A stretch of DNA of 64,000 nt, taken from positions 548 through 64,547 of the forward strand of contig CANGXU010000002.1 of the NCBI GenBank assembly GCA_947457885.1, written 5' to 3'. Source of the stretch: Betaproteobacteria bacterium (GTDB lineage: Bacteria; Pseudomonadota; Gammaproteobacteria; Burkholderiales; CAIKXV01). The position numbers were made by a program, and so were the translations under genes. Every line of letters begins with the position of its first letter. Within the stretch, counting starts at the first letter, position 1. Positions 24,302-52,656 of this stretch are shown here, in pieces. Below the pieces are notes generated by a model. The model saw only the letters and a program-made list of their open reading frames with translations. It did not search any database and had not been told where the DNA came from.

Positions 24302-24326
24302 CAGGTCCACTTGATCTGGAGGCACG

Positions 24327-25535: not shown

Positions 25536-25562
25536 GCAAGACTGGAGACGGGCAGAAACAAC

Positions 25563-25928
25563 ATGACGAAGATGATCCTTGCAGTGGACGATTCCGCATC
25601 GATCCGGCAGATGGTCGCGTTCACCCTGAAGAGCGCAGGGTATGACGTGATAGAGGCGGTCGACGGCCAGGACGGGCTGGAGAAGGCGAAGACGAAGGCG
25701 GTCAGCCTGGTGCTGACCGACCAGAACATGCCGAGGATGGATGGCATTTCGCTCGTCAAGGAGCTGCGCGCGCTTCCCCAGCACAAGAGCACGCCGATCC
25801 TGATGCTCACCACCGAGTCCAGCGACCAGATGAAGGCCCAGGGCAAGGCGGCGGGCGCGACCGGCTGGCTCGTCAAGCCCTTCGACCCGGCGAAGTTGCT
25901 GGAGGTCGTCACGAAGGTGATCGGCTGA
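25563..25928 (+). CDS. cheY: chemotaxis response regulator CheY
   Basis: Single REC domain of 121 aa: LAVDDSASIR, LVLTDQNMPRMDG, WLVKPF. Confidence 0.9.
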   Translation: MTKMILAVDDSASIRQMVAFTLKSAGYDVIEAVDGQDGLEKAKTKAVSLVLTDQNMPRMDGISLVKELRALPQHKSTPILMLTTESSDQMKAQGKAAGATGWLVKPFDPAKLLEVVTKVIG

Positions 25929-25981
25929 AGCGCGTACGCGCTCCGGACGTCTCGACCTCAAACCGACGACAGGAAAACCCG

Positions 25982-28276: not shown

Positions 28277-28352
28277 AGTTGCGCCGGACACCGACGCCGC
28301 GCCAGCGGCAGTTCCGGAGCAGAACATGATCGTACGAAACGGAGAAGTGCAG

Positions 28353-30404
28353 ATGAAGATGCAATCGATCAAGGTGGGTACCCGGCTTGGGGCGGGTTTC
28401 GGTCTTGTACTGGTGCTGTGCGTGGTACTCGCCTGGGTGGGTTATGCGAGCATGGGGAAGCAGGCGGTCCTGCTCGAGGCGATCGGCGGCAACATCCTGC
28501 CGAGCATCAAGATGCTCAGCGACATGCAGGGCAAGCAGGACCAGTACCGGCGCTGGGGGCTGCGCGCCACCTACAGTTCGACTGACGAGGGGCGAACCCA
28601 GGCGATGCAGGAGATGGTCAGCGCACGGGAAGCGCTGCTCAAGCTGACCGCTGTCTACCGGAAGGATGGTTTCCTGCTGGTCGGTACTGCCGAGGAGCCG
28701 CTGTTCAAGGTATACGAAGAGGCGCTGCAGGGCTACTTGAGGATGGAGGAGCAGAAGCTGCTGCCGCAACTGGCCAGCGGCGCGAAAGGCCGGATGGAGG
28801 CGGAGGCCGTCATGACCGCGGAGTCCTTCACGATGTTCGGCCTCGTTTCGAAGGCGCTGACGGACGTGATCGTGTACAACACGAAAATCTCCGATGAAGC
28901 CGTGGCCGCCGCGCACGCAGCGCACGACGAGGCGGTACGAACGCTCTCGTATGTGTTGATCGCGACACTGGTGATCGGTCTGCTGGCCGCGTGGCTCATC
29001 ACCCGCTCCGTCACCCATCCGTTGCGCAAGGCGGTTGCCGCCGCGGACGCGATCGCGGCCGGCGACCTGACGACCCGCATCGAAGTCGATGGGCGCGACG
29101 AAGCGGCCGCGCTGATGCAGTCGATGCAGGCGATGACCGGCGTCCTCGAAGCGCTGGTGTCCGCACAGGCCGAGATGGCAAAACAGCACGAAGAAGGCTG
29201 GATCGATCACAGGATTCAGGCAGATGCATTTCCGGGCACGTTCCGGCAGGTTGCGGAGTCGGTGAACGACCTGGTGGCCGCACACATCGCGGTCAAGTAC
29301 CGGGTCGTGGAAATCATCAGCGCCTACTCGAAGGGAGATCTCACGCCGAAGATGGACCGTTTGCCGGGAAAGAAGGCCGAGATCACGGTGGCGGTGGACG
29401 CGGTTCAGAGCAGCCTGGTCAACATCGTCGGGCAGATCAAGGAAGCGACCGAGTCGATCAACACCGCCGCGAAGGAGATCGCGCAGGGCAACACCGATCT
29501 CTCCCAGCGCACCGAGGAGCAGGCGTCGAGCCTCGAGGAGACCGCTTCCAGCATGGAAGAGCTGACATCGACGGTGAAGCAGAACAGCGAGAACGCGAAG
29601 CAGGCGAACCAGCTGGCGATCGGCGCCTCGGATGTCGCGGTACGCGGCGGCTCGGTCGTGGGCGAGGTAGTGCGTACGATGGACGAGATCACCACGGCGT
29701 CGAAGAAGATCTCCGACATCATCGGCGTGATCGACGGCATCGCTTTCCAGACCAACATCCTCGCGCTGAACGCGGCGGTGGAGGCGGCCCGTGCCGGCGA
29801 GCAGGGTCGGGGCTTCGCAGTGGTGGCGAGCGAGGTACGGAACCTGGCACAGCGCTCGGCCGCAGCAGCGCGCGAGATCAAGACGCTGATCGGCGACTCG
29901 GTACAGAAGGTCGAGAGCGGGTCGAAGCTGGTCGGCGAGGCTGGCAAGACCATTCAGGAGGTGGTGCATCAGGTCAAGCGCGTCACGGACATCATGGCGG
30001 AGATCTCTGCGGCTTCGATGGAGCAGAGCGCCGGCATCGAACAGGTGAGCACCGCTGTCACGCAGATGGACGAGGTGACGCAGCAGAACGCAGCACTGGT
30101 CGAAGAGGCGGCGGCTGCGGCCGAATCGCTGCAGGAACAGGCAGAGGTGCTGGCCGATACGGTGTCCGTGTTCCGGTTGTCCGAGGATGCAGCGCCGGCT
30201 GCCTACAGCGGTGCCGAGCGCCGCGGCCCGAATCGTGCCACGAACGTTTCGCGCCTGAAGCCGTCGGCACCGGCACCGGCACGGGCACCAGCACCGGTAC
30301 CTGCACCGGCACCGGCGTCAGAGGCTGTCCGGCCGGTGGACGCGGCGCCCCTGCCGCGACCCGCCAGGGCCGTGAACGCCGATGAATCGTGGGAAGAGTT
30401 CTGA
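28353..30404 (+). CDS. methyl-accepting chemotaxis protein (4HB-type sensor, HAMP, MA domain, C-terminal SWEEF pentapeptide)
   Basis: TM / periplasmic four-helix region / TM / HAMP ([18 protein letters not shown]), then the signalling domain [34 protein letters not shown]. Start ATG 28353 has a GGAGA RBS. Confidence 0.9.
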
Positions 30405-30429
30405 ACAACCGCATCCAGGAGAAACGCAT

Positions 30430-30954
30430 ATGAGCAACATCAATCGAGCACCCTCGGCAACCGGAGCAACCCCTGGCACTGCTCCGGTCCCCTCGGGTAC
30501 CAGCGAGTTCCTGACGTTCAAGCTCGGCGCTGAGGAGTACGGGGTCGAGATCCTGAAGGTGCAGGAGATCCGCGGCTACGACGCGGTCACCGCGATCGCC
30601 AATACGCCGGATTTCATCAAGGGTGTGATCAACCTGCGCGGCGTGATCGTCCCGATCGTGGATCTGCGCATCAAGTTCAGCCTGGGCAGCGTCACCTACG
30701 ACCCGTTCACCGTGGTGATCATCCTGAACATCGCCAGCCGTGTGATGGGTATCGTGGTCGACGGGGTGTCGGACGTGCAGGAACTGGACGGGTCGCAGAT
30801 CCGTCCGGCACCGGAGTTCGGCGCCGGCCTGGATACCGAGTACATCATCGGTCTGGGTACGGCGGGCGAGCGCATGCTGATCCTGGTGGACATCGAGCGC
30901 CTGATGACCAGCCGAGACATGGCCCTGATCGACGAGACAGCCTCGGTCCACTGA
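30430..30954 (+). CDS. cheW: chemotaxis coupling protein CheW
   Basis: [23 protein letters not shown]...[14 protein letters not shown] is typical of CheW. Confidence 0.9.
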
Positions 30955-30980
30955 GCGGTACGAAGGGCGAAGACAGAACC

Positions 30981-31865
30981 ATGCCGATTGCGCCATCACA
31001 CTCCACCGAGCCGGAAGCCGACTCGCATCCGGTGCGGAAGGAGTTTTCGTTCACCCGGGACGACTTCGAGCGTATCCGCCGGCTGATCTACGACCACGCC
31101 GGCATACAGCTCAACCCGGGCAAGATGGAAATGGTCTACAGTCGGCTGGCGCGTCGGCTGCGATCCAACAATCTATCCAGCTTTCGTGACTACCTGGGTC
31201 TGCTCGAGGGGCCGCGCGGCCCCGAGTGGGAAGCTTTCACCAATGCGCTGACCACGAATCTCACGGCGTTCTTCCGCGAAGCCCATCATTTCGTGGAACT
31301 CGAGAGGCTGATCCAGCGGGTGAGTGCGACGCGCGAGGTTTCGCTCTGGTGTTCTGCCTGCTCTACCGGCGAGGAAGCGTATTCGATGGCGATCAGCGCC
31401 ATCGAGGCCTGTGGAACCATGGCGCCACGGGTGAAGATCATCGCGAGCGATGTCGATACCGCCGTCCTTGCGAAGGCACAGGCAGGCGTCTACACGATGG
31501 ATCGGGTCGATCGGATGGCACCCGAGCGTCTCCGGCGCTTCTTCCTGCGCGGTTCCGGCGCGAACGAGGGGATGGTGCGGGTACGGCCCGAACTGGCGGC
31601 GCTCGTCCGTTTCGAGAAGGTCAACCTGCTCGATGCGCGCTATCCGGTCACCGGTCCGTTCGACGCGATCTTCTGCCGGAACGTGATGATCTATTTCGAC
31701 AAGCCCACGCAGCGCGGCATCCTGCAGCGGTTCGCGCCGCTGCTCAGGCCCGATGGCCTGTTGTTCGCCGGTCACTCCGAGAACTTCTACCATGCGGTCG
31801 ACCTGTTCCGGCTGCGGGCCAAGACGGTCTACGAACTGGCGCACGCCCGCGCGGAGACTGCATGA
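30981..31865 (+). CDS. cheR: chemotaxis protein methyltransferase CheR
   Basis: FFREAHHF, WCSACSTGEEAYSMA and IFCRNVMIYFD motifs. Confidence 0.9.
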   Translation: MPIAPSHSTEPEADSHPVRKEFSFTRDDFERIRRLIYDHAGIQLNPGKMEMVYSRLARRLRSNNLSSFRDYLGLLEGPRGPEWEAFTNALTTNLTAFFREAHHFVELERLIQRVSATREVSLWCSACSTGEEAYSMAISAIEACGTMAPRVKIIASDVDTAVLAKAQAGVYTMDRVDRMAPERLRRFFLRGSGANEGMVRVRPELAALVRFEKVNLLDARYPVTGPFDAIFCRNVMIYFDKPTQRGILQRFAPLLRPDGLLFAGHSENFYHAVDLFRLRAKTVYELAHARAETA

Positions 31866-32476
31866 GCCATGAGCGCCCCGAGACCATCGAAGGATTCGCG
31901 AAGACTCTGTACTTCGACCATACCTTCGAGGCCCCTGCCGCGAAACTCCTGCCGGGCGAGTTCTATGTCACCGGCAGCGACATGGTGCTGGTGACCGTGC
32001 TCGGGTCCTGCGTGGCCGCGTGCATCCGCGATCCCCAGACCGGCGTGGGGGGCATGAACCACTTCATGCTGCCCGAAGGCGGAAACGCCGATGAGGTCGC
32101 CAATGCGTCCGCCCGCTATGGCACATATGCGATGGAGGTGCTGATCAACACGATCCTGAAGCAGGGTGCACGCCGCTCCAGCCTGGAGGCCAAGGTGTTC
32201 GGCGGCGGCAATGTGCTCGAAGGGCTTACGGTGGCTAACGTCGGGCCGCGCAATGCGGCCTTCGTGCGCGCATTCCTGAGTACGGAAGGTATCCCGGTCA
32301 GGGCCCACGACCTGGAGGACATCTATCCGAGGAAGGTTTATTTCTTTCCGCGCACCGGGCGGGCCATGGTGCGCAAGCTGAAGACCGCCAACGACAAGGG
32401 CCTGATCGCACGTGAGCGCGAGTACAGCCGGCGCCTGGTTACCCGGCCTGCCAGCGGGGCGGTGGAGCTTTTCTGA
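31862..32476 (+). CDS. cheD: chemoreceptor glutamine deamidase CheD
   Basis: [25 protein letters not shown] and KVFGGGNV motifs. The ATG overlaps the cheR stop (ATGA). Confidence 0.9.
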
Positions 32477-33591
32477 TGAATTCCGCGACGCCTTCTTTCC
32501 AGCCCGGGGTACGTTCCCGCATCCGTGTGGTCGTCATCGACGACTCCGCGCTGATCAGGCGCGTGCTGACCGAGATCATCAATTCACAGCCCGACATGGA
32601 AGTGGTGGCCCAGGCGCCGGATCCGCTCGTCGCACGTGAACAGATCCGGGCGCTCAACCCTGACGTGATCACGCTCGATGTCGAGATGCCCAGGATGGAC
32701 GGGCTGGCCTTCCTGGAAAAGCTGATGCGGTTGAAACCGACGCCGGTGGTGATGGTGTCGACACTGACCGAACGCGGGTCGGAGACGACGCTGCGCGCGC
32801 TGGAACTGGGCGCGGTCGATTTCGTCTCGAAGCCCCGGATCGATATCGTGCATGGCATGCAGGAATATGCTGGCGAGATCACCGACAAGATCCGTGCGGC
32901 TTCGGTCGCACGGGTGCGAAGGCTCGTGGGGCCGGCGTCCGAACCGGCCGGCGGCGCCGCAGACGCGCTGCCATCCCGACCGGTGTCCGGGTGGTCGACG
33001 GAGAAGCTGATCATCGTCGGTGCGTCGACCGGCGGCACCGAGGCCCTCCGCGAGTTGCTGGAGCCTCTGCCGCCGGACATCCCCGGCATCCTCATCGCAC
33101 AGCACATGCCGGAAGCGTTTACCCGCTCGTTCGCGCGCAGGCTCGACGGACTGTGCCGGATCACCGTCAAGGAAGCCGAGGACGGAGAGCGGGTGCTTCC
33201 GGGGCACGCCTACATTGCGCCCGGGCATTCGCATCTACTGTTGCGTAGAAGCGGCGCGAACTACATGACGACGCTGTCGCAGTCGGAGCCGGTCAATCGT
33301 CATCGCCCGTCGGTCGATGTCCTGTTCCGCTCCGCCGCGACACATGCCGGCCGCAACGCGATCGGGGTGATACTCACCGGCATGGGGCGCGACGGCGCGG
33401 CCGGGATGCGCGAGATGCGCGACGCCGGTGCCTGGAATATCGCGCAGGACGAGGAGAGTTGCGTCGTGTTCGGCATGCCGAAGGAAGCCATCAACGGCGG
33501 CGGGGTCGACGAGGTCCTGCCGCTGAAGTCGATCGCCCGCGCCGTCATCGGCCAGATCACCGCGAGCGGTGGTCGTCAGAACCGGGTCTGA
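32476..33591 (+). CDS. cheB: protein-glutamate methylesterase/deamidase CheB
   Basis: REC domain ([23 protein letters not shown]) plus methylesterase domain ([24 protein letters not shown]). Confidence 0.95.
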
Positions 33592-33675
33592 CCCCGGCCG
33601 CTCTACAGTCGTTATTCCATCGTCGATACCACCCGGCATCCGCCATCCTCTGCAGCATCGATCAAGGAGTTCTTC

Positions 33676-33981
33676 ATGCAGACCCGAGTCAGCGTCATCA
33701 ACGAACGTGTACGGATTTCGCTGTCCGGCCGTTTCGACTTCAACGCCCACCGCACGTTCAAGTCGGCCTATGAAGGCCAGATCGGCTCGAGCGAGGTCTC
33801 GGCGATCGAGATCGACCTCGGCAACGTCGACTACCTGGACAGCGCCGCGCTGGGCATGCTTCTGCTTCTTCGCGACCAGGCGAGCGGCGCCCACAAGACA
33901 GTGATCCTGAGCAACTGCCGCGGCGTGGTTCAGCAGATCCTCGACATCGCGAACTTCAAGAAGCTGTTCACGATCCAGTAG
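33676..33981 (+). CDS. STAS-domain anti-sigma-factor antagonist
   Basis: 101 aa. IDLGNVDYLDSAALGMLLLL resembles the SpoIIAA/RsbV phospho-Ser loop (DS..LG). Strong AAGGAG RBS. Confidence 0.8.
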   Translation: MQTRVSVINERVRISLSGRFDFNAHRTFKSAYEGQIGSSEVSAIEIDLGNVDYLDSAALGMLLLLRDQASGAHKTVILSNCRGVVQQILDIANFKKLFTIQ

Positions 33982-34044
33982 TCGGCACGGGCCGCGGCAA
34001 TGACTCCGATGCCGCCCGCCTGTCCTCACGAGGGTTGACCCAGG

Positions 34045-35805
34045 ATGGACCTGACATCGCCGCCGCTGCCTGCCGGCCACGCAGTGCCTGAGGAGGCCGC
34101 CGGTGCCGGCGTGATCCTCATCGACAGCGACCTGGCCGTACGGCGCGACCTGCAGGTGATGCTCGAGGCGAACGGCGCGCGGCTGTTGGCCGTATCGTGT
34201 GTCGCCGAGGCAGTGGAGCTGGCCGATCGCGGCGAGGCCGCGGTCGTGCTGTGCGCGATGTCGGAGGGAGATGGGGCGCTGCGTGCGCTCGCGGAACGTC
34301 GCCTGGACAGCCGGCCAGCGTGTCCGTGGACGCTGGTCGCGCTGGTGCCGGCGTCGGCCGTGGAAGCAGACATCGAACGCCTCCATGGGCTCGCGGACGA
34401 CTTCCTGCAGTTGCCGCTCAGCGTCGGATGGCTTGGTGCCCGGTTGCGGATGTACCTGCGCATGGGGGCGTATGTCGAGCGCACGCAGGCGCAGCGCACG
34501 ATGCTCATGCGCCATCAGGACGAGGCTGAGGAAGAGCAGCGTATCGCTAGCTACCTGATCTCCCGACTGGAACGCCTTGATCCGCTCGCCGAGCGCCTGA
34601 TGCATGCCTGGGTCTCGCCCGCGCACCACCTGAGCGGCGACGTCGTCGCCGTCGCGCGCTCGCCGGATGACCGGATCAACGTGCTGCTGGCCGACGGTAC
34701 CGGCCATGGCCTCGCCGCGGCGATTTCCGTGCTGCCCGTCAGCGAGGTGTTCCACCGCATGACCGACCGCGGCTTCGACATCGCGAGCATCGTCACCGAG
34801 ATGAACCGGAAGCTGCGCAGTTGCATGCCTGCCGACCGCTTCGTTGCCTGCGTGGCTGCCTCGATCGACATGCGCGATCGGGTGATCGAACTGTGGAACG
34901 GGGGTTGTCCGCCTGTCATGCTGCTGGGCAGCGACGGCAGCATGGAGCGCATCTGGCGATCTCGCCACATGGCGCTCGGCATCCTCGACGACAAGGACTT
35001 CGACAGCTCGATCGAGCGTTTTTCGTACCGGGAGCAGTCCCAGCTGATGGTCGTATCCGACGGTCTCTCGGAGGCGCTCGGGCAGGACGGCAAGCATCGC
35101 TTCGGCGATCGCGAACTGCTCGAGGCGGTACGCGGCGAGGCAGCGCCCCGGCTGTCCCGGGTCGTCAGCCGCCTGCAGGCGTTCACCGGTGGACGTGCCC
35201 TCGAGGACGATGCGTCCGTGCTGTTGGTCGACTGCCTGCTCGAGCCGCTCGCCGAGCCTGTCGTTGAAACGCCCGCAGCGACAGGTAGCGTGCGTACGTC
35301 GCACTGGGCACTCGAGTTGCGGCTGGGACCGACTCAACTGCGCAAGCTCACGCTGGCGCCGTTTGCCAGCAGCCTGGTCGAGCAGCTCGGCATTCCCCGC
35401 AGTCTGCGTTCGAACGTGTACTGCATGCTGTCGGAACTCCTCGCCAACGCGCTCGACTACGGCGTACTCGGCCTGGACCCGGCAGTGCTCGACATGCCCG
35501 GCGGCAGGGAGCGGTTTCGCGATGACCGGGCAGCCCGGCTGGCCGGGCTGTCTTCCGGCAGCCTTTGGATCAAGGCGGCCGTCGAGCCCTTCGGTGGTGG
35601 CGAGTACCTGCAGGTCGAGATCGAGGACTCCGGTACAGGTTTCGACATCGAAGGTCTGGAGGCCCGGCTGGCCGGGCTCGGTGCCGCGGATGCAGTACGG
35701 CGCGGCCGTGGTCTGGAACTCGTGCGGTCGGTGTGTACCGAACTGCGCTTCGACCAGCGGGGGCGACGCGTGGTCGCGATCATCGCGCTGTCCGCGGGCC
35801 GCTGA
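34045..35805 (+). CDS. three-domain partner-switching regulator: receiver-like domain + PP2C/SpoIIE phosphatase + RsbW-type HATPase (HsbR/CrsR-like architecture)
   Basis: N-terminal REC-like fold (VILIDSD...). SpoIIE motifs SGDVVAV, LLADGTGHGLAAA, VSDGLSEA, EDDASVL. C-terminal anti-sigma kinase motifs SELLANALDYG, IEDSGTGFD, GRGLELV. Confidence 0.8.
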   Translation: MDLTSPPLPAGHAVPEEAAGAGVILIDSDLAVRRDLQVMLEANGARLLAVSCVAEAVELADRGEAAVVLCAMSEGDGALRALAERRLDSRPACPWTLVALVPASAVEADIERLHGLADDFLQLPLSVGWLGARLRMYLRMGAYVERTQAQRTMLMRHQDEAEEEQRIASYLISRLERLDPLAERLMHAWVSPAHHLSGDVVAVARSPDDRINVLLADGTGHGLAAAISVLPVSEVFHRMTDRGFDIASIVTEMNRKLRSCMPADRFVACVAASIDMRDRVIELWNGGCPPVMLLGSDGSMERIWRSRHMALGILDDKDFDSSIERFSYREQSQLMVVSDGLSEALGQDGKHRFGDRELLEAVRGEAAPRLSRVVSRLQAFTGGRALEDDASVLLVDCLLEPLAEPVVETPAATGSVRTSHWALELRLGPTQLRKLTLAPFASSLVEQLGIPRSLRSNVYCMLSELLANALDYGVLGLDPAVLDMPGGRERFRDDRAARLAGLSSGSLWIKAAVEPFGGGEYLQVEIEDSGTGFDIEGLEARLAGLGAADAVRRGRGLELVRSVCTELRFDQRGRRVVAIIALSAGR

Positions 35806-36783: not shown

Positions 36784-39700
36784 TCAGGTCGTTGCCGGTG
36801 CCGGCTGGCGCTCCAGCCGGGCAAGGCAGCGGGCGATCCACTGTGCAGTGAGCTTCTCCTGTACCGAGTTCTGGCGCAGCCGCTCGTTCAGTGCCGGGAA
36901 GTCCACCTGGTCGAGCGACTGGTCCTGGTTGAAGCACGAGAAGACGTAGGTAATCCGGCCGGTCTCGCGGTCGCGGTGGGGCTGAAGGCACTGCGCGCAG
37001 ATCTCCTTCATCATGCACTGCATCGGCGAGTTGATCGAACCGATCGCCCGGTGGGTCGATTTCAGATGGCGTGCCAGTACGCCATGCCGCGCCGCGCCGA
37101 CGGCGGCCATCATCCGGTCGGAGCCGATCGCGATGATGCGGTCGACGTCGGTCACCTGGATCGATGCTTCGCCGAGCTGGCCGTCGGCATACGCTGCGAT
37201 CGCCTCGACGATGTTGGCGCTGATGGTCCTGTCCTGTGACCGGCTGGGCTCGAAACCCGGGGACTCGTCGCAGCACCAGATGACGGTATCGGCTGCAGCC
37301 TCGATCTCCTCGACCTTGTAGCGGTCGATGCGTTTCTTGTACCCCGCGAAGTAGAGCACCTTCGATCCGGCGGCGCGCAGCGCCTGACCGATCGAGAACA
37401 GCACCGCGTTACCCAGACCACCGCCCACCAGCATGACGGTTTCGCCCGCGACGATCTCGGTCGGCTCGCCGGTGGGCCCCATCAGCACGATCGGCTCGCC
37501 GGGACGCAGCGTCTTGCACAGGTCCGACGAGCCGCCCATTTCGAGCACGATGGTCGATACCAGCCCGCGCTGCGGATCGACCCATGCACCGGTCATCGCC
37601 AGGCCCTCCATCGCGAGGCGGGTGCCGTCGATCCTGGCGGCGTTCATCTCGTAGTTCTGCAGGCGATAGAACTGGCCCGGCCTGAACCGGGACGCAGCGC
37701 GGGGGGCCTTCACCACCACCTCGATGATGGTCGGCGTCAGGCGGTTCACCGCATGCACGGTCGCGCGCAGTTCGCCGTTCAGGCGATCGAGGAAGGCGGT
37801 TTTGTCCGGCGCCGGGCAGGCGGGCAGCGCGGCGAGCACGCGCGAGACGGTCGGGTAGCCCTGCTTGGCCGACCCCATCGCCTTCACCACGTTGCCGAAA
37901 TAGGACGGATGCAGGTCGCCGAAGAAGCTGATGAACCGGCCGTCGTCGCGGCGGGACATGAACACGTTGGGCTGCTTCGGCTTGGAGATCGATCGCTCGG
38001 GGCGCACGGGATTACCCTGTTCGTCGCAGGCCCTGAAGTAGCGGCCATCGAGCACGAACGTCTGCGCATCTTCGCGCGCCAACACCGTGTTCGGGTTCGT
38101 GCCGGCGGCTATCAGCACGGTACGGGCGGGCAGCGCCACGTCCCCGGCATCGGTCCATTGGCCATCGTCGGACCGCGACTGGCGGGTCATCGTGATCGAC
38201 TGCACATGCTGCAGCTCATCGACATCGATGCGCAGCGGCGACAGCCCTTCCGCGAACACGATGCCTTCCTCCAGTGCCTTGTGCACCTCTTCGTGGTTCA
38301 GCGTATAGGACGGCGAGTCGACCAGGCGCTTGCGGTAGGCCAGCGTGACGCCGCCCCAGCCGGCGATCATCGCGGCCAGCCGCGGAGGGCGGCCCTCGGT
38401 GGCGGCCGAGCGGCGTTCGACGCGGATCGCCTGTGCATGGGCGATGAATTCGTCGGCGATCGCGCGCTCCTCCGCGTTCCAGCGTGCGCGCACTGCGTCA
38501 CTGCCCTGTTCCGCGGCCAGCGTCTCGTAGCGGGACAGGAACTTCTCGACCTGCACCGGATAGTAGGCGAGCGATTCGGTCGCCGTGTCGACGGCGGTGA
38601 GCCCGCCGCCGATCACCACCACTGGCAGGCGCAACTGCATGTTGGCGATGGAATCGGCCTTGGCGGCACCGGTCAGCTGCAGCGCCATCAGGAAATCGGA
38701 AGCGGTACGCACGCCGCGGGCGAGGCCGTTGGGCATGTCGAGGATGGTCGGCCGGCCGGCACCGGCGGCCAGCGCGACATGGTCGAAGCCGAGGTCGAAC
38801 GCATCCTGCGCGGTGAGCGTGCCGCCGAAGCGAACGCCGCCGAACATCGCGAACTCGGCGCGGCGCTCGAGCACGAGCCGGATCACCTTCAGGAAGTTCT
38901 TGTTCCAGCGTACGGTGATGCCGTACTCGGCAACGCCCCCGAAACCGGCCATGACCCGGTCATCGAGCGACTCGTACAGGTCCTGCACGTCGCGCACCGG
39001 ATGGAAGGGCACCCGCCGACCGTGGCCATCCACGCCGGACAGTTCCGGCGGCAGCGGCTCGATCTTCAGGCCGTCGATGCCGGCCACCACATGGCCGTCG
39101 TTCATCAGGTGGTGCGCCAGCGTGAAGCCGGCCGGACCCAGGCCGACCACCAGGACCTTGCGGCCGGTGGAGGCGCGCGGCAGCGGCCGCCGGAGGTCGA
39201 GCGGGTTCCAGCGCGTCAACAGGCTGTAGATCTCGAAGCCCCAGGGCAGTTCCAGAACGTCCTTCAGCGTCCGCGTCTCCGATTCCGGGATGTTGACCGG
39301 TTCGGTCTTCTGGTAGATGCAGGCCTTCATGCAGTCGTTGCAGATCCGGTGGCCGGTGGCCGGCATCATCGGGTTGTCGATGGCGATCAGGGCCAGTGCG
39401 CCGATCGCATGGCCCATCGCCTTCACCTCGTGGAACTCGGAAATGCGCTCCTCGAGCGGACAGCCGGCCAGCGCCACCGCGAACGGGGACTTCTTGTACT
39501 GCGCGGCCGCGGGCAGTGCATCGAGGGTGGCTGCATCGCCCTTCAGCTTTTCCTTCAGCCCCTTCGAGCAGGAGTCCTTGCCCTGGTGGTGGCACCAGAT
39601 GCAGTAGTGCGCCTGGTCGAGTGCGCCGACCAGGTCGGTGCCGCGATCGGTCAGCGCGAATCCTTCGCGATGTCGCTGGTGCGCTTCGCCAAGCGTGAAT

Positions 39701-40320
39701 GCCCGGTAGCCGCCAGAGGTATCGGCCTCGACCGGGACGAGGTGCAGCGGATCCGTCTTGTGCGGCGTCTTGAACAGCACGCCGGCAGCGTGCCGGCGGC
39801 GGCCCTCCGGCGTGGCCAGCGCCCAGGCAGCGTAGTGCAGGGCGAGGACGACGCGGTCGGCGTGCGCCGGCTCGGCCTGCCAAGCGGACACGTGCCGTGC
39901 GAACGCGGTTTCACCGAAGGGTTCGCCGAACCACTGCCCAAGCGTGGACGCTGCCGCGTCCGCGTCAAAACCGACCAGCGCCTCCGGCTTTACCTTGGTC
40001 GCTGCCTGGCGCTGCACGAACTGCCGCTTGCATTCGTACAGCGGCGCCAGTTCGCTGTGGCGCGCCGAGAGCGCGCGTACGGCTTCGCCGATGCCGAACA
40101 GCTCGCCGACGAAGTCGTCTACCCAGGGCGAAAGCTCGATCAACAGAGCAGCCTCGGCCGCTGCGTCCAGTGCGTTCGGGGCCTCGCGCGCACAGCGCAG
40201 CCGGGTACCCAGCCCGGCATCGCCGGCGTGGAGCCATTCCAGGAAGGCGGCGTCGAGTGCGATGAGGCCTTCGTGTTGATACAGTTGTTCGAAGCGGAGC
40301 CCGTGGGCGAGAGAAAGCAT
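36784..40320 (-). CDS. large multidomain flavoprotein: unknown N-domain + GltD/NfnB-like Fe-S/FAD/NAD(P) oxidoreductase + PyrK/NfnA-like ferredoxin-NADP reductase module
   Basis: Cys clusters (CIWCHHQGKDSC, HRICNDCMKAC), Rossmann motifs VLVVGLGPAGF and VVVIGGGLTAVD. The C-terminal FNR-like module has RFRPGQFYRL, MLVGGGLGNA and a PyrK-type 2Fe-2S motif (SPMQCMMKEICAQC...FSC). Start ATG 40320 inside the longer ORF. Confidence 0.75.
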   Translation of the reverse strand: MLSLAHGLRFEQLYQHEGLIALDAAFLEWLHAGDAGLGTRLRCAREAPNALDAAAEAALLIELSPWVDDFVGELFGIGEAVRALSARHSELAPLYECKRQFVQRQAATKVKPEALVGFDADAAASTLGQWFGEPFGETAFARHVSAWQAEPAHADRVVLALHYAAWALATPEGRRRHAAGVLFKTPHKTDPLHLVPVEADTSGGYRAFTLGEAHQRHREGFALTDRGTDLVGALDQAHYCIWCHHQGKDSCSKGLKEKLKGDAATLDALPAAAQYKKSPFAVALAGCPLEERISEFHEVKAMGHAIGALALIAIDNPMMPATGHRICNDCMKACIYQKTEPVNIPESETRTLKDVLELPWGFEIYSLLTRWNPLDLRRPLPRASTGRKVLVVGLGPAGFTLAHHLMNDGHVVAGIDGLKIEPLPPELSGVDGHGRRVPFHPVRDVQDLYESLDDRVMAGFGGVAEYGITVRWNKNFLKVIRLVLERRAEFAMFGGVRFGGTLTAQDAFDLGFDHVALAAGAGRPTILDMPNGLARGVRTASDFLMALQLTGAAKADSIANMQLRLPVVVIGGGLTAVDTATESLAYYPVQVEKFLSRYETLAAEQGSDAVRARWNAEERAIADEFIAHAQAIRVERRSAATEGRPPRLAAMIAGWGGVTLAYRKRLVDSPSYTLNHEEVHKALEEGIVFAEGLSPLRIDVDELQHVQSITMTRQSRSDDGQWTDAGDVALPARTVLIAAGTNPNTVLAREDAQTFVLDGRYFRACDEQGNPVRPERSISKPKQPNVFMSRRDDGRFISFFGDLHPSYFGNVVKAMGSAKQGYPTVSRVLAALPACPAPDKTAFLDRLNGELRATVHAVNRLTPTIIEVVVKAPRAASRFRPGQFYRLQNYEMNAARIDGTRLAMEGLAMTGAWVDPQRGLVSTIVLEMGGSSDLCKTLRPGEPIVLMGPTGEPTEIVAGETVMLVGGGLGNAVLFSIGQALRAAGSKVLYFAGYKKRIDRYKVEEIEAAADTVIWCCDESPGFEPSRSQDRTISANIVEAIAAYADGQLGEASIQVTDVDRIIAIGSDRMMAAVGAARHGVLARHLKSTHRAIGSINSPMQCMMKEICAQCLQPHRDRETGRITYVFSCFNQDQSLDQVDFPALNERLRQNSVQEKLTAQWIARCLARLERQPAPATT

Positions 40321-40589
40321 CGGAGATCGTTCGCAGTTGCGGTTGGGCGGGGATCCGGCGGCACCGGGCAGGGCGACGTACATTCGCCCGCACGACGGGT
40401 CGTGCCGAGACCCGCGCCGATCGGCAATGATAGTGCGGATCAGGCGACTGCGACCTGCAGGCGCCGTGCGTACCACGGACTGTCCCCGATGCCGGCCGGA
40501 ACCGAGCCGTCCCGGCCAGACGGCTGGCAGCAGGCGTGGACGCGCGGTAAGCTCCCGGACCGCACTCCTCAAGCGTTCCCATTGCCGTG

Positions 40590-41688: not shown

Positions 41689-42933
41689 TCAGCCGGCGTG
41701 GTACACCGCACGTGCCGCATCGACGCCCGCACCGCGCGTGAACCGGTGGTGCTCGCCCGCGAGTACCGCTTCCAGGGCCGCCAGGGTGGTCAGCACCGCA
41801 TCGCGACGTGCGTTGTAGCCCATCGCGCCGATGCGCCAGATGCGTCCGTGCAATGGACCGAACGAGGTGCCGATCTCGATGTTGAACTCGTCCAGCATCG
41901 CGGTGCGTACACGGTCCCCGCTGACGCCTTCCGGGATCCAGACGCCGGTGACGTTCGGCATCTTGTTGGCCTTGTCGCCGAAGATCTTCAGGTTCATCGC
42001 CTCGAGCGCTGCGACGATCGCGCGGCTGGCAAGGGCGTGCCGTGCGTACACTGCCGCATGGCCCTCCTGCAGGAAGATGCGCGCGCATTCTCGGGCTGCA
42101 TAGAGCATGGAGGTGGCTTCGGTGTGGTGGTTGAGCGCTCGCTCGCTCCAGTAGTCGATGATCATCGCGAGATCGAAGTAGTTCGACGCGATGATGCCTC
42201 CGGCTCCAGGCTGGTAGTCGGCCGGTCGCAGGCCTTCCTCGACATGCCGGCGTCGCATGATCACTTCGCACAGCGAGTCGGACAGCGTGATCGGCGCGAT
42301 GCCCGACGGGCCTGCGAGGCATTTCTGCAGCGCGCCGGTCACGCAGTCGATCTGCCATGCGTCAACCGGCAGCGGGGTGCCGCACAGCGATGCAGTGGCA
42401 TCGACCTGCAGCATCACACCATGGCGTCGACACAGGGCTCCCAGTTCGGAGAGTGGCTGCAGCATCGTCGTCGAGGTGTCGCCCTGGCAGCAGGCCAGCA
42501 GCTTCGGGGAGAAGGCGCGGATCTCGGCTTCGATGAGTGCGAGGTCGAACACCGTGCCCCATTCGGCCTCTATCACCCGCACTTGCGCGCCGACCCGACG
42601 CGCGATCTCGGCCTTCAGCTGGCCGAATCGTCCGAAGCTCGCCACCAGCACACGGTCGCCCGGCTCGATCAGCGACACCATCACGGTCTCGATCGCCGAG
42701 CGGGCCGTACCATCGATGCACAGCGTCTGTGCATTAGACGTCTCGAACACGCCGCGATAGAGGTCCTGCGTATCGCGCATGTACTGGCGGAACTGCGGAT
42801 CGAACTGGCCGAGCAGCTGTGCCGACATCGCGCGCAGCACGCGCGGATCGGCATTGATCGGGCCCGGTCCCATCAGCAGGCGGGGCAGCGGATTGAGCTC
42901 GGACAACGCCTGCGCGGGTATCGAAGGTGACAT
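41689..42933 (-). CDS. class V aminotransferase (alanine/serine--glyoxylate aminotransferase family)
   Basis: LLMGPGPINADPRVLRAM N-terminus and the PLP-Lys region CVTGALQKCLAGPSG, typical of AGXT/SPT-type enzymes. Confidence 0.8.
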   Translation of the reverse strand: MSPSIPAQALSELNPLPRLLMGPGPINADPRVLRAMSAQLLGQFDPQFRQYMRDTQDLYRGVFETSNAQTLCIDGTARSAIETVMVSLIEPGDRVLVASFGRFGQLKAEIARRVGAQVRVIEAEWGTVFDLALIEAEIRAFSPKLLACCQGDTSTTMLQPLSELGALCRRHGVMLQVDATASLCGTPLPVDAWQIDCVTGALQKCLAGPSGIAPITLSDSLCEVIMRRRHVEEGLRPADYQPGAGGIIASNYFDLAMIIDYWSERALNHHTEATSMLYAARECARIFLQEGHAAVYARHALASRAIVAALEAMNLKIFGDKANKMPNVTGVWIPEGVSGDRVRTAMLDEFNIEIGTSFGPLHGRIWRIGAMGYNARRDAVLTTLAALEAVLAGEHHRFTRGAGVDAARAVYHAG

Positions 42934-47504: not shown

Positions 47505-48098
47505 TCAGGCGTACAGACGACTGTGCTTTGGCACCCTCGCCATCAGGTATTCCATCTGGTCGACGAGGATGCGGCGGTTCTGCAGGATCATGTGCTCATG
47601 GCGGTTGGGCACATACGGCAGGTAGAGCAACGGCATGCGTGCGGCCTCGGGCGTACGGTTGTCTTTCTTGCTGTTGCAGGTCCGGCAGGCGGTCACCACG
47701 TTCATCCAGCGGTCTTCGCCGCCGCGCGACAGCGGCACGATGTGGTCGCGCGACAGTTCCCGCTCGCGCAGGCGATCGCCGCAATACGCACAGACCTGCC
47801 GGTCGCGCACAAACAAGGCCGCGTTGATCAGTGCCGGTTCGCGCTGGAATTCCTTGGCGAACGAGCCCGCCCCCTTGATCGCGATGATGCTCGCGGTCGA
47901 GAGTTCGGAGCGCTCGCCGGTGCTGCGCGACAGCCCGCCATGGTAGGTGCGCACGATGCTGCCGATCGACCATGCCACCTGATGCTTGGCGTGGTAGGTG
48001 ATCGCCTCTTCGACCAGCAACCATCGACGCGGTAGCCCGCCCGGATCGACTTCCAGGATCAGCGGCTCACCTCGGGCGCGACTACCGAATGCAGTCAT
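47505..48098 (-). CDS. HNH endonuclease family protein
   Basis: CAYCG...SRDHIVPLSRGG..WMNVVTACRTCNSKK is an HNH/zinc-finger motif. It lies immediately 3' of tRNA-Sec. Confidence 0.75.
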   Translation of the reverse strand: MTAFGSRARGEPLILEVDPGGLPRRWLLVEEAITYHAKHQVAWSIGSIVRTYHGGLSRSTGERSELSTASIIAIKGAGSFAKEFQREPALINAALFVRDRQVCAYCGDRLRERELSRDHIVPLSRGGEDRWMNVVTACRTCNSKKDNRTPEAARMPLLYLPYVPNRHEHMILQNRRILVDQMEYLMARVPKHSRLYA

Positions 48099-48195: not shown

Positions 48196-48291
48196 TGGCG
48201 GAAGAGAGTGCGAGTCGAACGCACGGAGGACTGGATCACAGCCCTCACCGGGTTTGAAGTCCGGCCGTCCCACCGGGGACGTTTCCCTTCC
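48196..48291 (-). tRNA. selC: tRNA-Sec (UCA anticodon)
   Basis: Minus-strand sequence GGAAGGGAAACGTCCCCGGTGGGACGGCCGGACTTCAAACCCGGTGAGGGCTGTGATCCAGTCCTCCGTGCGTTCGACTCGCACTCTCTTCCGCCA. It folds with an 8-bp acceptor stem, a 6-bp D stem with a 4-nt loop, a CUUCAAA anticodon loop, a long 8-bp variable arm, a 5-bp T stem (GTGCG/CGCAC) with a TTCGACT loop, and an encoded CCA. It is collinear with E. coli selC and lies 20 nt after the selB stop. Confidence 0.93.
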
Positions 48292-48311: not shown

Positions 48312-50264
48312 TCACGCGTCCGGCTGTGCGTCCGTCTGCGCGGCCTCGCGGTAAACGTCGGACACCTTGCGCCGGAGCTTGCGTGCGTCGCCGACGCGCA
48401 ACGTGAGCCCGGCGCTGTCGAAGTGTTCCAGGATCTGGATGGCGAGGCTGCGGCCGATGCCTGCCTGATCGCGGTACTGCGCCGCATTGAACTGGCCACC
48501 TGGGACAGCCTGGGCAGTGGCCTCCACCAGCCGGGCGAGCGCGACGATCGCCGCCCGCAGGTACACGCGCTGCGGGTCGATGCGCACCAGTTCGCCGCGC
48601 TTGATCCGACGCTGGAGCATGGCCTGCAGGGCCTTCTCGTCGAGCTTCAGCGTGGCGGCAATCTCTCTCACCTGCGGTGGCGCATTCGGGGTCTTCGTCA
48701 GCAGCGGCCTGACCCGCTTCCACATCGCCTCGTCGGCACTGTTTGCGGACGCGTCGAAGCCCGGCAGGCGGGCGAGGCCTCCGGTGAGTTCCAGCGTGCG
48801 TGCCTGTACCGCATCGCGCAGCACCGCCTGCAGGATCTCGTCTGGCAGCGCAAGGCCGGCGTTCTTCTGCAGCACGGCCAGTTCGATGCCGGTCGCCTGC
48901 GGGGATTTTGCGTGGAAGCTGCGCACCTCTGCGAGCAGGGCCTCGCGCATTGTTGCGAGCCGGGCGGGTTCGAATGCGCGCCGCAACTCGCGCCCGAGTA
49001 CCTGCAGCCCGGCCGCCTTGTACAGCCGCTGCGCGGCTTCGGCTGTGAGGTTGAAGCGGCGCTCGAACAGCGCGACATCGATGCCGGCCGCAGCGTGCGG
49101 CAGCAGGGCCTGGAGCACGTCCGGCGGCGCGCCGCCGTCGAGCGCAGCGAGTTCCAGCTGGCGCTCGGCCATCCGCCGGCGGCGCGGTGGTGGGAACGGA
49201 TCGATCACATGCCCGCCGCCGATCGTCCGCTGGGCGGAGAAGTCGCGCACGATGAAGCGGTCCCCGGCGATCGCACCGACCGGCTGGTCGAGCACGAGTT
49301 GCGCGACCTCTGCAGTGCCCGGCGCGACGGACAGGTCGCGCCGGGTCGAGAGGCGGCCGGTGACATCGGCGGTGCCCAGGTGCAGGTGCACCGGCGTCCA
49401 GTGGCGCAGCGGGTTCGGTTCCGTCGCCAGCGCGCGCAGGTGCACGTCGATGCGGCTGGTCGGCGCATGGATGGCGGGGTCGACCAGCCATTCGCCCCGC
49501 GTGATCGCGTCTTTCTGCAGGTCGGCGCCGGTAAGGTTGACCGCGCACCGGGCACCAGCTGCCGCCTGTTCTACCGTCCGCCCCTGGACCTGCAGCCCGC
49601 GCACTCGCACGGCAACGCCAGACGGTGACAGGGTCAGGGTATCGCCGACCTTCACGCGGCCGGCGAAGATGGTTCCGGTGACCACGGTGCCGCTGCCGGC
49701 CACCGTGAAGCAGCGATCGATCGCGAGCCGGAAGTGCCTGCCTTCGGAAGCGCCCAGCCGCTGGGCGGACAGCCGTGCCACGAGCGTCTCTCGCAAGGCG
49801 TCGATACCATCGCCGTTCATCGCCGACACCGGCAGCACTGGGGCGTCGCGCAGCACGGTATCGGCGACCAGCGCGCGCAGCTCCGCGGTCACGGCCTCGA
49901 TCCGTTCGGGCGCAACACGGTCGACCTTGGTGATCACGAGCAGGCCCTGGCGAACGTCGAGCAGGTCCAGGATCGCCAGGTGCTCGCGCGTCTGAGGCAT
50001 CACGCCGTCGTCGGCGGCGACCACGAGCAGCACGAAATCGATGCCGGATACGCCGGCGAGCATGTTGCGCACGAAGCGTTCATGGCCCGGCACATCGATG
50101 AAGCCGATCGCGCTGCCGTCGGGCAGGCGCAGGTGCGCGAAGCCGATGTCGATCGAGATGCCGCGCCGCTTTTCCTCGGGCAGGCGATCGGTATCGATCC
50201 CCGTGAGCCGCTTCACGAGCAGCGTCTTGCCGTGGTCGATATGGCCTGCGGTGGCGACGATCAT
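48312..50264 (-). CDS. selB: selenocysteine-specific translation elongation factor SelB
   Basis: GTPase motifs [19 protein letters not shown] and ITKVD, plus a long C-terminal winged-helix extension. It sits between selA and selC. Confidence 0.93.
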
Positions 50265-50271
50265 CGTGCGC

Positions 50272-51657
50272 TCAGCCAGCCAGCAGCGGCAGTTGCGCGA
50301 GCAGCACTGCCTCGCCGTCGGCTTCGAGGCAGCGCAGGTCGAGCAGCAGGGCGTTGTCGTGGATGCGGCCCACCACCGGCCGCGGCAGGGCGCGCAGCCG
50401 TGCCGCGAGGCGGTCCAGGCTGCCGCCCCGGCTGGCGAACCGGATCGACAGCGCGGCCGAAGGCAGGCGGTCGACCGGCAGCGACCCGCTGCCGATCTGG
50501 CTCGAGCATTCGACCACCTCGACCGTCGCGCGTTCGCCGAGTGCCGCAGCGAACGCAGGCTTCAGGCGGATCGCGCAGGCATGGATATCCTCGCGCGGGC
50601 GGGTGAGCAGCCGCAGCGCCGGCAGCCGCTGGCGCAGACGGTCGGGATCGAGGTACAGGCGCAGCGTGGCTTCCAGCGCGGCGATGGTCATCTTGTCGAG
50701 GCGCAGCGCCCGCTTGAGCGGGCATTTCCGGATGCGGTCGATCAGCGCCTTGCGGCCGACGATCAGCCCGGCCTGCGGACCGCCGAGCAGCTTGTCGCCG
50801 CTGAAGGTGACCACGTCGGCGCCGTCGGCCAGTGATTCCTGGGGCGTCGGCTCGTGGGGCAGGCCGTAGGGAGCCAGGTCGACCAGCGACCCGCTACCGA
50901 GGTCTTCCAGCATCGGCAGCTCGTGGGCGTGGGCGATGCCGGCGAGCGTTCGGGTGTCGACGGTCGAGGTGAAGCCCTCGACCTGGTAGTTGCTCGGGTG
51001 CACGCGCATCAGGGCAGCGGTCGAACGCCCGATGGCCTCTTCGTAGTCGCGACCGTGGGTACGGTTGGTCGTGCCCACTTCCCGCAGCTTGCAGCCGGCG
51101 CGGCTCATGATGTCGGGCATGCGGAACGCACCGCCGATCTCGATGAGTTCGCCACGCGACACGATGACCTCACGGCGCGCCGCCAGCGCGGTCAGTGTAA
51201 GCAGCACCGCAGCCGCGTTGTTGTTGACCAGGGTCGCGGCCTCGGCGCCGGTGATCCGGCACAGCAGCTTCTCGACGTGGCTGTCCCGTTCGCCGCGGCG
51301 GCCGGTGGCCAGGTCGAACTCGAGGTTGGACGGCTGGCCCATCACGGCCATTACCGCCTCGATCGCCTCCGGGGCTGCCCACGCACGGCCGAGGTTGGTG
51401 TGCAGCACCGTACCGGTCAGGTTCAGAACCGGCAGAAGCCCGGGCCGGCTGTCCCGCTCCAGCAGTCGTTCGCAATCGCCGAAGAACGCGGCGGGTTCGA
51501 AGACCGCTGCCGTCGTCCGCAGCCGGTCGATCCCGGCACGTACGGCATCGAGCGCGAGCGAGCGGCCATGCCGTTCGATCAACCGCTGGCCCTCGGGCGA
51601 CCGCAGCAGGCGGTCGACCGAGGGCGGATGAACTGTTGCAGCGGCTGGTTCGTTCAC
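50272..51657 (-). CDS. selA: L-seryl-tRNA(Sec) selenium transferase SelA
   Basis: PSVDRLLR N-terminal motif, [14 protein letters not shown], and the PLP-Lys region [16 protein letters not shown] start inferred at 51657, 9 nt after the upstream stop. Confidence 0.9.
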
Positions 51658-51665
51658 GGCATGGT

Positions 51666-52442
51666 CTAGTCTTCCCAGACCTTTTCGGGAAGCGGCAGTC
51701 CCTTCAGGTCTTCCGCCGTCAGCGGCTGGTCGGGCTCGATGCCCATCCTCGACAGCAGGAACTGCAGCTGGCGGGTGTGCTGGGCCGAATGCCAGGCGCA
51801 GCGCTCGAGCAGCACCGATAACGGCTGCGTCCCGAAATAGGTCTGCACGACCTGCTTCGCTGCCGGGTCTGTCTTCTCGTGCTGCGCCCACCAGTCGTGG
51901 AGCCGCTGGCGCACCTCGGCTGCGTAGTCGGCCACCTGCTGCGGGCGGGTGATCGAATCCTCCGGCGGCTTCACCGGCTGTTCGATCGTGAACTCGATCC
52001 CCTGCACCGCTTCCAGCATCGCTTCCTGGATGCGGACCAGATGGTGAGCCAGCTCGCGGTAGGTGCGCTTGCGGCCGGACATCGGCAGCAGTTCATTGAA
52101 CTTGTCCTGCGGCAGTTGCGGCACGAAGCGTTGTGCACCCGCCAGTACCACCTCGGCGCGCTGCACCAACTGCGCAGGGGTAAGTGCCGGACCGCCGTCG
52201 AACTGCAGGCCGAGGAACTTCGCCACTTCGGGGATCACCTGGCCGAGTACCCATTGATCGCCGCGAGCGACGACGGGGGTGGTCTTGGCGCCAAGCGCCG
52301 TCAGTTCGGCGAGCCCTGCGGGGTCGTTGAAGATATCGATGATGTCGAATTCGATATCGAGTCGCGAAAGAAACTCTTTCGTCCGGAGGCAGCTCGTTCA
52401 GCCGGGCTTGGTGAAGAAGCGTATGCGTTGTGCCTGGGCCAT
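51666..52442 (-). CDS. candidate selenoprotein: glutaredoxin-like domain with a U-x-x-C redox motif fused to a DinB-fold domain (in-frame TGA at 52398..52400 read as Sec)
   Basis: ATG 52442 (GGGAGA RBS) gives [70 protein letters not shown]. This continues in the same frame into ORF 51666..52238 (DinB-like: [15 protein letters not shown]). The TGA replaces the first Cys of a Grx CxxC. There is a SECIS-like hairpin downstream, and the gene is first in the operon with selA-selB-selC. Confidence 0.7.
52358..52397 (-). promoter_or_regulatory. candidate bacterial SECIS element
   Basis: The mRNA after UGA is ACGAGCUGCCUCCGGA-CGAAAGA-GUU-UCUUUCG-CGACUCG. It forms a perfect 7-bp upper stem (52365..52381) with a G/U-containing apical loop beginning 23 nt after the UGA. 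A lower CGAG/CUCG stem begins 1 nt after the UGA. Confidence 0.6.
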
Positions 52443-52656
52443 CGTGGTCTCCCTGGATCGGTTGCATTGCGGTATCCCGCAACGAGTCGGACATTTTAGT
52501 CCATCGCGGCATTCATCGCGCGTTCGCCGTGCGATCGTCGTCGGCAGCCGGTGCGGGACGGGCGAGGGCGGTGGATGGCGGCGGGGGCGGACGTATACTC
52601 GGGGCGGACCGCGGACGCACCGCCGCGTCGATCGACGACATGGGAGGAGTGTGAGC

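Follow-up and report, generated by a model that had tools for sequence, protein, structure and literature searches.

A predicted selenocysteine-containing glutaredoxin-DinB fusion protein encoded beside selA, selB and tRNA-Sec in a freshwater Burkholderiales genome

We analyzed 64,000 nucleotides (nt) of contig CANGXU010000002.1 (assembly GCA_947457885.1), a stretch of a freshwater Burkholderiales genome that we refer to as the window, and identified on its reverse strand a gene predicted to encode a selenocysteine (Sec)-containing protein in which a glutaredoxin (Grx)-like domain is fused to a DinB-type four-helix bundle. An in-frame UGA replaces the first active-site cysteine of the Grx domain, and the gene stands at the head of selA, selB and tRNA-Sec. 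We are confident that this is a genuine selenoprotein gene of the 'Grx-like' family; the enzymatic mechanism that we propose for its product is a tentative one, with somewhat less than an even chance of being correct. As the best overall explanation, selenoprotein gene and mechanism taken together, we assign this reading a probability of roughly 0.85.

A Grx-DinB frame with a single internal UGA

The features of the gene and its predicted product are listed here, all on the reverse strand.

51666..52442 (-): predicted Grx(Sec)-DinB selenoprotein coding sequence, 258 residues plus TAG, ATG at 52442, Sec at codon 15, based on the frame, Pfam, orthologues and the ratio of nonsynonymous to synonymous variation (pN/pS)
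52398..52400 (-): in-frame UGA, candidate Sec codon, first residue of a U-T-S-C redox motif, aligned with Cys in homologues
52448..52453 (-): Shine-Dalgarno-like GGGAGA, 5 nt before the ATG
52203..52424 (-): glutaredoxin-like (thioredoxin-fold) domain, residues 7-80, based on PF00462 and PDB sequence matches to NrdH and Grx
51723..52181 (-): DinB/YfiT-like four-helix-bundle domain, residues ~88-240, based on PF12867 and Foldseek matches to 6iz2, 2p1a and 1rxq
52043..52041, 51791..51789 and 51779..51777 (-): His134, His218 and His222, invariant alignment columns

From the ATG to the terminating TAG at 51668..51666, the 258 codons lie in one frame whose sole internal stop is the TGA at codon 15, and our translation agrees with the original prediction, which had been made from the DNA letters without database searches. 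TGA is otherwise an ordinary stop in this 67% G+C genome, ending 32 of 38 gene-like open reading frames (ORFs). The Shine-Dalgarno site is present as had been described, and orthologues carry AGGAGG or GGAG at the same place. A promoter/terminator scan returned no promoter and only two terminator-like sites, both on the opposite strand and no more than expected by chance. Base composition is flat over 44-56 kb of the window (GC 0.64-0.73) with no sign of a foreign island, an origin that we rejected.

Pfam and NCBIfam scans of the window protein, in which U was read as C, bore out the proposed two-domain architecture, with Glutaredoxin (PF00462) matching residues 9-63 at 44.8 bits (cut-off 22.9) and DinB_2 (PF12867) matching residues 114-226 at 37.1 bits (cut-off 24.8). 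The cis-Pro motif TTPVV occupies residues 54-58. For structure we used an AlphaFold2 model of P0015, a Cys-containing homologue 49% identical to the window protein, which had a predicted local distance difference test score (pLDDT) of 93.7 and a predicted template modeling score (pTM) of 0.89. Foldseek searches of the PDB matched the C-terminal domain of this model to 6iz2, 2p1a, 3di5, 2f22 and 1rxq with probability 1.00 and template modeling (TM) scores by target of 0.65-0.84, and the N-terminal domain to the small Grx/thioredoxin-like structures 3zit and 7c10 (TM 0.86-0.88). A canonical glutathione S-transferase fold was rejected, as matches to such enzymes had TM scores of 0.25-0.39 and root-mean-square deviations of 8.6-16 A. 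No NCBIfam model reached its cut-off, the NrdH and Uxx-star models matching weakly; NrdH-redoxin (TIGR02194) scored 38.4 bits against a cut-off of 85.75 and was likewise set aside. In the window protein G61…Q68 presumably replaces the classical GG-x-DD glutathione-binding motif.

Residues invariant in both Sec and Cys forms comprise P13, C/U15, S17, C18, the cis-Pro P56, R124, R126, H134, W184-W185, E213-R214, the signature W217-H218-x-x-Q221-H222-x-R224-Q225, and a tail of G248-L-P-x-P…W256. H134, H218 and H222 occur without exception in 98 Cys forms and, among the matches listed, in 70 Sec representatives, and their spacing is that of the DinB metal triad, H…H-x3-H.

Conservation across the UGA

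Orthologous DNA was taken from the contigs behind truncated protein calls and from 12 species-level GTDB genomes. The TGA at codon 15 is kept in 14 of 14 species-level orthologues, all of them from freshwater or uncultured Burkholderiales/Betaproteobacteria metagenome-assembled genomes. Among these orthologues pN/pS is 0.19 in codons 1-14, 0.16 in codons 16-68, the stretch upstream of the GTG start called in the window, and 0.29 in codons 69-258, so that the upstream coding conservation on which the original prediction had staked its case is present and spans the TGA. Nucleotide identity between orthologues rises from 32% in the 60 nt upstream of the ATG to 88% between the ATG and the TGA.

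The closest protein relatives in a search of 5.8 billion proteins (58-93% identity) were all called as truncated products of 201-237 residues, beginning at varying points inside the Grx domain (MVARG.., VKTTP.., MGVKT.., MRAGV..); P0010 and P0013 are fragments. In every case the DNA upstream of the truncated call encodes the conserved N-terminus and the TGA in one frame. All retrieved public calls for Sec forms (proteins P0001-P0013; loci L001-L017) are N-terminally truncated, as had been anticipated for standard gene callers, and are named 'DinB family protein', 'hypothetical protein' or nothing at all. Relatives at 42-50% identity are full-length Grx-DinB proteins of 250-260 residues with Cys at the Sec position. 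The equivalent of residue 15 (Cys13 of P0015) is an invariant Cys in 98 full-length homologues, and the window TGA aligns with Cys in more than 100. Both expectations of the original prediction thus held: the TGA falls on the first Cys of the Grx redox motif, and in homologues of this architecture that position is Cys or an in-frame TGA.

With a degenerate DNA pattern we recovered metagenome contigs that have TGA at the active-site position, at least 120 in number, from soils, the sea and fresh water. Among the matches listed, nearly all have about 240 open codons 3' of the TGA and, on its 5' side, the conserved motif (I/V)(K/R)V(F/Y)W(Q/R/H)PG; these matches fall into 70 representatives below 90% identity and 22 groups below 70%. 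Searching 1.84 billion 50%-cluster representatives with a profile gave 257 matches at E 1e-30 or better, and of the top 150 about 60 begin just past the active site. Three N-terminally truncated representatives that we checked proved to be two Sec forms and one Cys form with a mis-called start. L142:3001-3702 is a Cys form whose public call starts inside the Grx domain although the upstream frame is open and complete (…VVKLFWQTGCSSCMRAKEFL). Since this Cys form is likewise truncated, N-terminal truncation alone is no marker of a Sec form; we therefore dropped the count of truncated cluster representatives as Sec forms, and the figure of about 60 in the best 150 is a rough upper bound only. Sec forms are a sizeable fraction of the family, and a rough neighbor-joining tree requires at least five Sec/Cys switches.

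A conserved hairpin downstream of the UGA

Three elements of the coding sequence 3' of the UGA stand out at the RNA level.

52365..52381 (-): hairpin CGAAAGA-GUU-UCUUUCG resembling a selenocysteine insertion sequence (SECIS), 7-bp stem, GUU loop, based on conservation and bacterial SECIS (bSECIS) criteria
52362..52397 (-): suppressed synonymous variation in codons 16-27, containing the SECIS-like element
52332..52358 (-): second inverted repeat GAUAUCGA…UCGAUAUC, codons 29-37, with low synonymous variation

In the bSECIS consensus the upper stem measures 4-16 bp and is capped by an apical loop of 3-9 nt, which has a G at position one or two, with G or U as the next base in most cases; this loop lies 16-37 nt from the UGA, and the minimum free energy does not exceed -7.5 kcal/mol (PMC13188914). 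The window hairpin, at nt 20-36 counting from the U of the UGA, has a stem and a 3-nt loop within these ranges, a loop that starts with G27-U28 as the G-position rule asks, and a spacing of 23 nt (nt 4-26).

Evidence for selection on this element comes from its conservation. Among the 14 orthologues the fraction of synonymous differences is 0.046-0.06 in codons 16-27 compared to 0.316 over the whole gene, and synonymous variation remains low until about codon 39. Sec forms of the window clade encode the element as ACG AAA GAG TTT CTT TCG, using A/T-ending codons despite a median G+C content at third codon positions (GC3) of 0.83; three Cys forms read ACC AAG GAR TTC CTC, without such a stem. 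Without a single change, the 18-nt string recurs in 23 representatives; these span 6 groups, between which protein identity drops to 38% (median 48%). Another 23 representatives share a second hairpin design, ACY AAG GAG UUC CUU GGC, with 6 bp and an AGUU loop, and in L005, the outgroup Sec form nearest to the clade, a bulged variant of 10 bp begins 11 nt past the UGA. The loop holds the same G-U in the first design (type A, GUU), the second (type B, AGUU), L005 (AGUU) and L143 (GUA).

A stem of at least 6 bp closing the G27-U28 loop occurs in 65% of representatives compared to 5% of synonymous-codon shuffles, and the mean stem length is 5.46 in representatives and 3.25 in shuffles (sd 0.11). 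The L143 hairpin, GUGAAAGA-GUA-UCUUUCAC, differs from ACGAAAGA-GUU-UCUUUCGU by two pairs changed on both sides, a compensatory pattern. These comparisons indicate that a SECIS-type hairpin is under RNA-level selection beyond the needs of the protein. The hairpin of the original prediction is thus conserved and agrees with the consensus in loop, G position and spacing, while the stability of its fold is not exceptional.

Some Sec forms appear to be built differently. L144 (~738) lacks the simple hairpin and would form GAGACUC-AAG-GAGUUUC, and a strong stem, UCGAUCC-GUG-GGAUCGA, is found in several others about 34-50 nt past the UGA. The family may accordingly use more than one SECIS design. Where the window has its second inverted repeat, L005 has GGUGUCG-AGUU-CGACACC; the repeat may extend the SECIS or form an element of its own.

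Relation to known selenoproteins and DinB proteins

A 'Grx-like' family appears in Table 2 of the Global Ocean Sampling (GOS) selenoproteome (Zhang & Gladyshev 2008 PLoS Genet, PMC2398784), with 42 Sec sequences, 255 Cys homologues, a UxxC motif and pfam00462 at e>0.001, and the heading '#Grx-like' of its Dataset S1 includes full-length reads. The window protein aligns with JCVI_READ_1093016003158 at 45% identity over 252 residues (E 1e-80), with PG-U-TSC aligned; this full-length read, which starts MGDIVRVFWQPGUTSCLRAKEFL, shares its U-T-S-C motif, length and C-terminal tail. The GOS paper presents the family only as a distant glutaredoxin homologue. The DinB domain is not named in its main text and domain-fusion section as searched, the latter section does not mention the family, and no link to sel genes is remarked on (PMC2398784). 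Its members there were marine shotgun reads without genome context, whereas the window copy lies in a freshwater Burkholderiales genome within a sel operon.

Judged by this similarity, the window gene is a new freshwater Burkholderiales member of an already predicted selenoprotein family that has never been characterised. The original prediction had stated that no characterised Grx(Sec)-DinB fusion was known; this is right as to characterisation, but the family itself had been listed in 2008. An inventory of 119 prokaryotic selenoprotein families from 2026 contains glutaredoxin (PF00462, UxxC) but neither a DinB-domain entry nor a separate one for this family (PMC13188914), full-text literature searches for selenoprotein or selenocysteine together with DinB gave nothing relevant, the supplement text of the Sargasso Sea paper held no matching sequences, and NCBIfam has no model for the Grx(Sec)-DinB family. 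As far as the searchable literature goes, the assignment of the C-terminal domain to the DinB/YfiT metal-binding bundles, the conserved SECIS designs and the recurrent selA-selB-selC linkage are new.

Each half of the protein has relatives of its own. The single-domain selenoprotein glutaredoxin of Clostridium oremlandii (Kim et al. 2011, as cited in PMC13188914) shares the thioredoxin fold, the Sec of U-x-x-C and the cis-Pro loop; such glutaredoxins are stand-alone proteins of about 80-90 residues, whereas the window protein adds a domain of about 170 residues and has the motif UTSC. The DinB family includes metal-dependent bacillithiol, mycothiol and glutathione S-transferases (Newton et al. 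2011, as cited in PMC4360819). Like B. subtilis YfiT, S. aureus BstA and mycobacterial Mst, the window protein is predicted to have a four-helix bundle with a His triad and the DinB_2 domain. These proteins are 12-18% identical to it, have a single domain and use a free low-molecular-weight thiol; unlike them, the window protein would carry a redox-active Sec/Cys domain fused at its N-terminus. Peroxiredoxin-glutaredoxin and other Grx fusions share the design of a CxxC Grx domain joined to the enzyme that it presumably reduces (Alves et al. 2009, PMC2679010). The partners listed in that survey are enzymes of known function, such as a peroxidase or methionine sulfoxide reductase, and DinB is not among them (PMC2679010).

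A proposed mechanism

During translation, SelB·GTP·Sec-tRNA(Sec) would bind the hairpin while the ribosome is at the UGA, leading to insertion of Sec. The apical loop of the hairpin is built from the Glu23-Phe24 codons (GAG-UUY), which places G27-U28 in the loop. In the mature protein the Sec15/Cys18 pair would cycle between the selenol/thiol and selenenylsulfide states and cooperate with the fused DinB-type bundle, in which a divalent metal is predicted at His134/His218/His222, by analogy with DinB-family thiol S-transferases. Because the DinB family holds metal-dependent S-transferases, we suggest that the Sec15/Cys18 pair serves, or is served by, a metal-dependent site for thiol transfer or reduction. 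The product may then be a self-contained selenol/thiol-dependent transferase or reductase, the kind of activity that the original prediction had suggested, acting on an electrophilic or oxidised substrate; its physiological reductant might be glutathione or thioredoxin reductase.

A further extension, which we hold loosely and regard as unlikely, is that Grx(Sec)-DinB and selA-selB-selC form a compact, self-sufficient Sec module, in which the fusion protein would be the main or only selenoprotein sustaining the Sec trait and its selenolate would lie beside the DinB metal site, replacing a free thiol cofactor. The module would cover freshwater Burkholderiales and, independently, the marine and soil clades.

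Linkage to selA, selB and tRNA-Sec

The genes that follow on the same strand are listed here.

50272..51657 (-): selA, L-seryl-tRNA(Sec) selenium transferase, GTG start 8 nt after the TAG, TIGR00474 583.9 bits (cut-off 267.9)
48312..50264 (-): selB, Sec-specific elongation factor, 7 nt after selA, TIGR00475 430.1 bits (cut-off 242.25)
48196..48291 (-): tRNA-Sec (selC), anticodon UCA, 20 nt after selB, found by ARAGORN and Rfam RF01852 (72.9 bits)

The gene heads selA-selB-tRNA-Sec as originally described, with the gap to selA corrected from 9 nt. The order in the window clade is selenoprotein gene-selA-selB-tRNA-Sec-HNH gene. L005 has the same upstream neighbors as the window clade with no sel genes adjoining. 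A marine clade has the order selA-selB-tRNA-Sec-selenoprotein gene, L055 has selenoprotein gene-tRNA-Sec-selA-selB, and a soil clade has selA-selB-selenoprotein gene followed by a short-chain dehydrogenase/reductase (SDR) gene. Among the groups defined from the matches listed, 3 of 22 show sel linkage, and tRNA-Sec is linked in two clades. Clustering of neighboring ORFs was noisy owing to shadow ORFs in high-GC DNA.

This linkage bears on what the protein does. Rather than in general detoxification or redox chemistry, it could work in selenium metabolism, for example by passing selenium from selenodiglutathione or selenite toward SelD; adjacency to sel genes in three clades with differing gene orders would fit such a role, and glutathione and thioredoxin systems have been discussed as routes of selenium delivery to SelD (PMC13188914). 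Against it, no sel linkage is seen in fifteen loci from at least 10 other Sec-form groups, each with at least 2.5 kb of sequence to either side, and the Cys forms that we examined occupy unrelated gene contexts. The linkage would be equally explained if the gene were the main selenoprotein of those genomes; fdhF adjoins sel genes in other bacteria. We consider a dedicated role in selenium metabolism distinctly improbable.

Alternatives to selenocysteine insertion

Could the UGA be read without selenium? Low-level UGA read-through occurs in bacteria, and with a weak hairpin a near-cognate tRNA might insert Trp, Cys or Gly to give a selenium-free protein. Such a product would leave several observations aside: selA, selB and tRNA-Sec adjoin the gene here and sel genes are linked to it in two other clades, the UGA stands at a redox-active Cys position as in the classical Sec/Cys pair, TGA serves as a normal stop in this genome, and the conserved hairpin follows the bSECIS rules for loop, G position and spacing. 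We give this possibility very little weight.

An equally small weight goes to termination at the UGA, with the 14-codon upstream ORF acting as a leader peptide and translation restarting internally to make a DinB-only protein. The public calls of 201-237 residues are what this would predict, but their starts vary among orthologues and lie inside a conserved thioredoxin fold, and codons 16-68, 5' of the called start, show a pN/pS of 0.16. Cys homologues are single full-length polypeptides, and a Grx domain cut past strand beta-1, without its active site, would not fold. Because coding conservation spans the TGA, we exclude a product limited to DinB and preceded by an unrelated leader peptide.

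The lone in-frame stop, together with the L047, L052 and L132 copies, whose frames end early past the TGA, could point to a nonsense mutation or to a mistake in sequencing or assembly; the locus would then be a pseudogene, or the codon would really be Cys or Trp. The probability of this is negligible: separate assemblies of 14 species-level genomes carry the same TGA, as do at least 120 metagenome contigs, pN/pS is 0.16-0.29 on either side of it, and synonymous sites just downstream are constrained. In those three metagenome copies the frame stops 25-140 codons past the TGA, and they may be decayed copies or assembly errors.

Several results weigh against Sec insertion and the proposed mechanism. 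The hairpin is weak by itself (-5.2 to -6.3 kcal/mol, compared with -9.7 kcal/mol for the UGA plus 45 nt), so that it is borderline by the bSECIS energy limit; its stability is not exceptional against dinucleotide shuffles (z -0.6), and over 69 genes the mean z against synonymous-codon shuffles is -0.2, the same as in control regions. Since these thermodynamic tests were null, hairpin stability was dropped as evidence and position-specific conservation used in its place. In about one third of Sec-form representatives the simple GAG-UU hairpin is missing and bulged or shifted structures would be needed, and an Rfam scan at E values up to 10 matched tRNA-Sec only. Beyond the sel genes there is no conserved functional neighbor, only common families (SDR, acyl-CoA dehydrogenase, TctC), and selD was not found among the window ORFs scanned. 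The NrdH and Grx models of NCBIfam fall short of their cut-offs and so do not point to a reductant.

Other genes in the window

The remaining annotated features lie downstream of tRNA-Sec or further away.

47505..48098 (-): HNH-only protein, 197 residues, directly after tRNA-Sec
41689..42933 (-): class-V aminotransferase, near the flavoprotein ORF, no clear selenocysteine lyase
36784..40572 (-): flavoprotein ORF, ~1262 residues, PRK06567-like, 762 bits, below the cut-off of 1072
33592..35805 (+): STAS-domain protein, then a SpoIIE-phosphatase/HATPase_c_2 protein, resembling a partner-switching module
24315..33591: chemotaxis cluster of a methyl-accepting chemotaxis protein (MCP), CheW, CheB and response regulators, just before the STAS/SpoIIE pair

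Nine loci of the window clade carry the HNH protein in this position, at 77-92% identity, and its NCBIfam matches are solely to the HNH domains of Cas9d and IscB; the gene is absent beside the L005 Sec form. The ORF at 36784..40572 was considered as an Ndh-SelD fusion and rejected, being a GltD/PRK06567-like flavoprotein; PRK06567 is a glutamate synthase beta / 2-polyprenylphenol hydroxylase-like family.

Implications

Our results do not overturn current understanding, as the selenoprotein status of the family had already been predicted. With truncated gene calls and no NCBIfam model, a widespread selenoprotein is systematically missed in soil, marine and freshwater data. The identification of a DinB/YfiT domain gives the 18-year-old orphan 'Grx-like' selenoprotein a concrete hypothesis, that of a Sec/Cys domain feeding a metal-dependent site. 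If true, the chemistry would be new, with a protein-borne selenol in place of the free thiol of other DinB transferases. The repeated linkage to selA-selB-selC marks the bacteria concerned as candidate cases of a Sec trait kept by a selenoprotein other than formate dehydrogenase.

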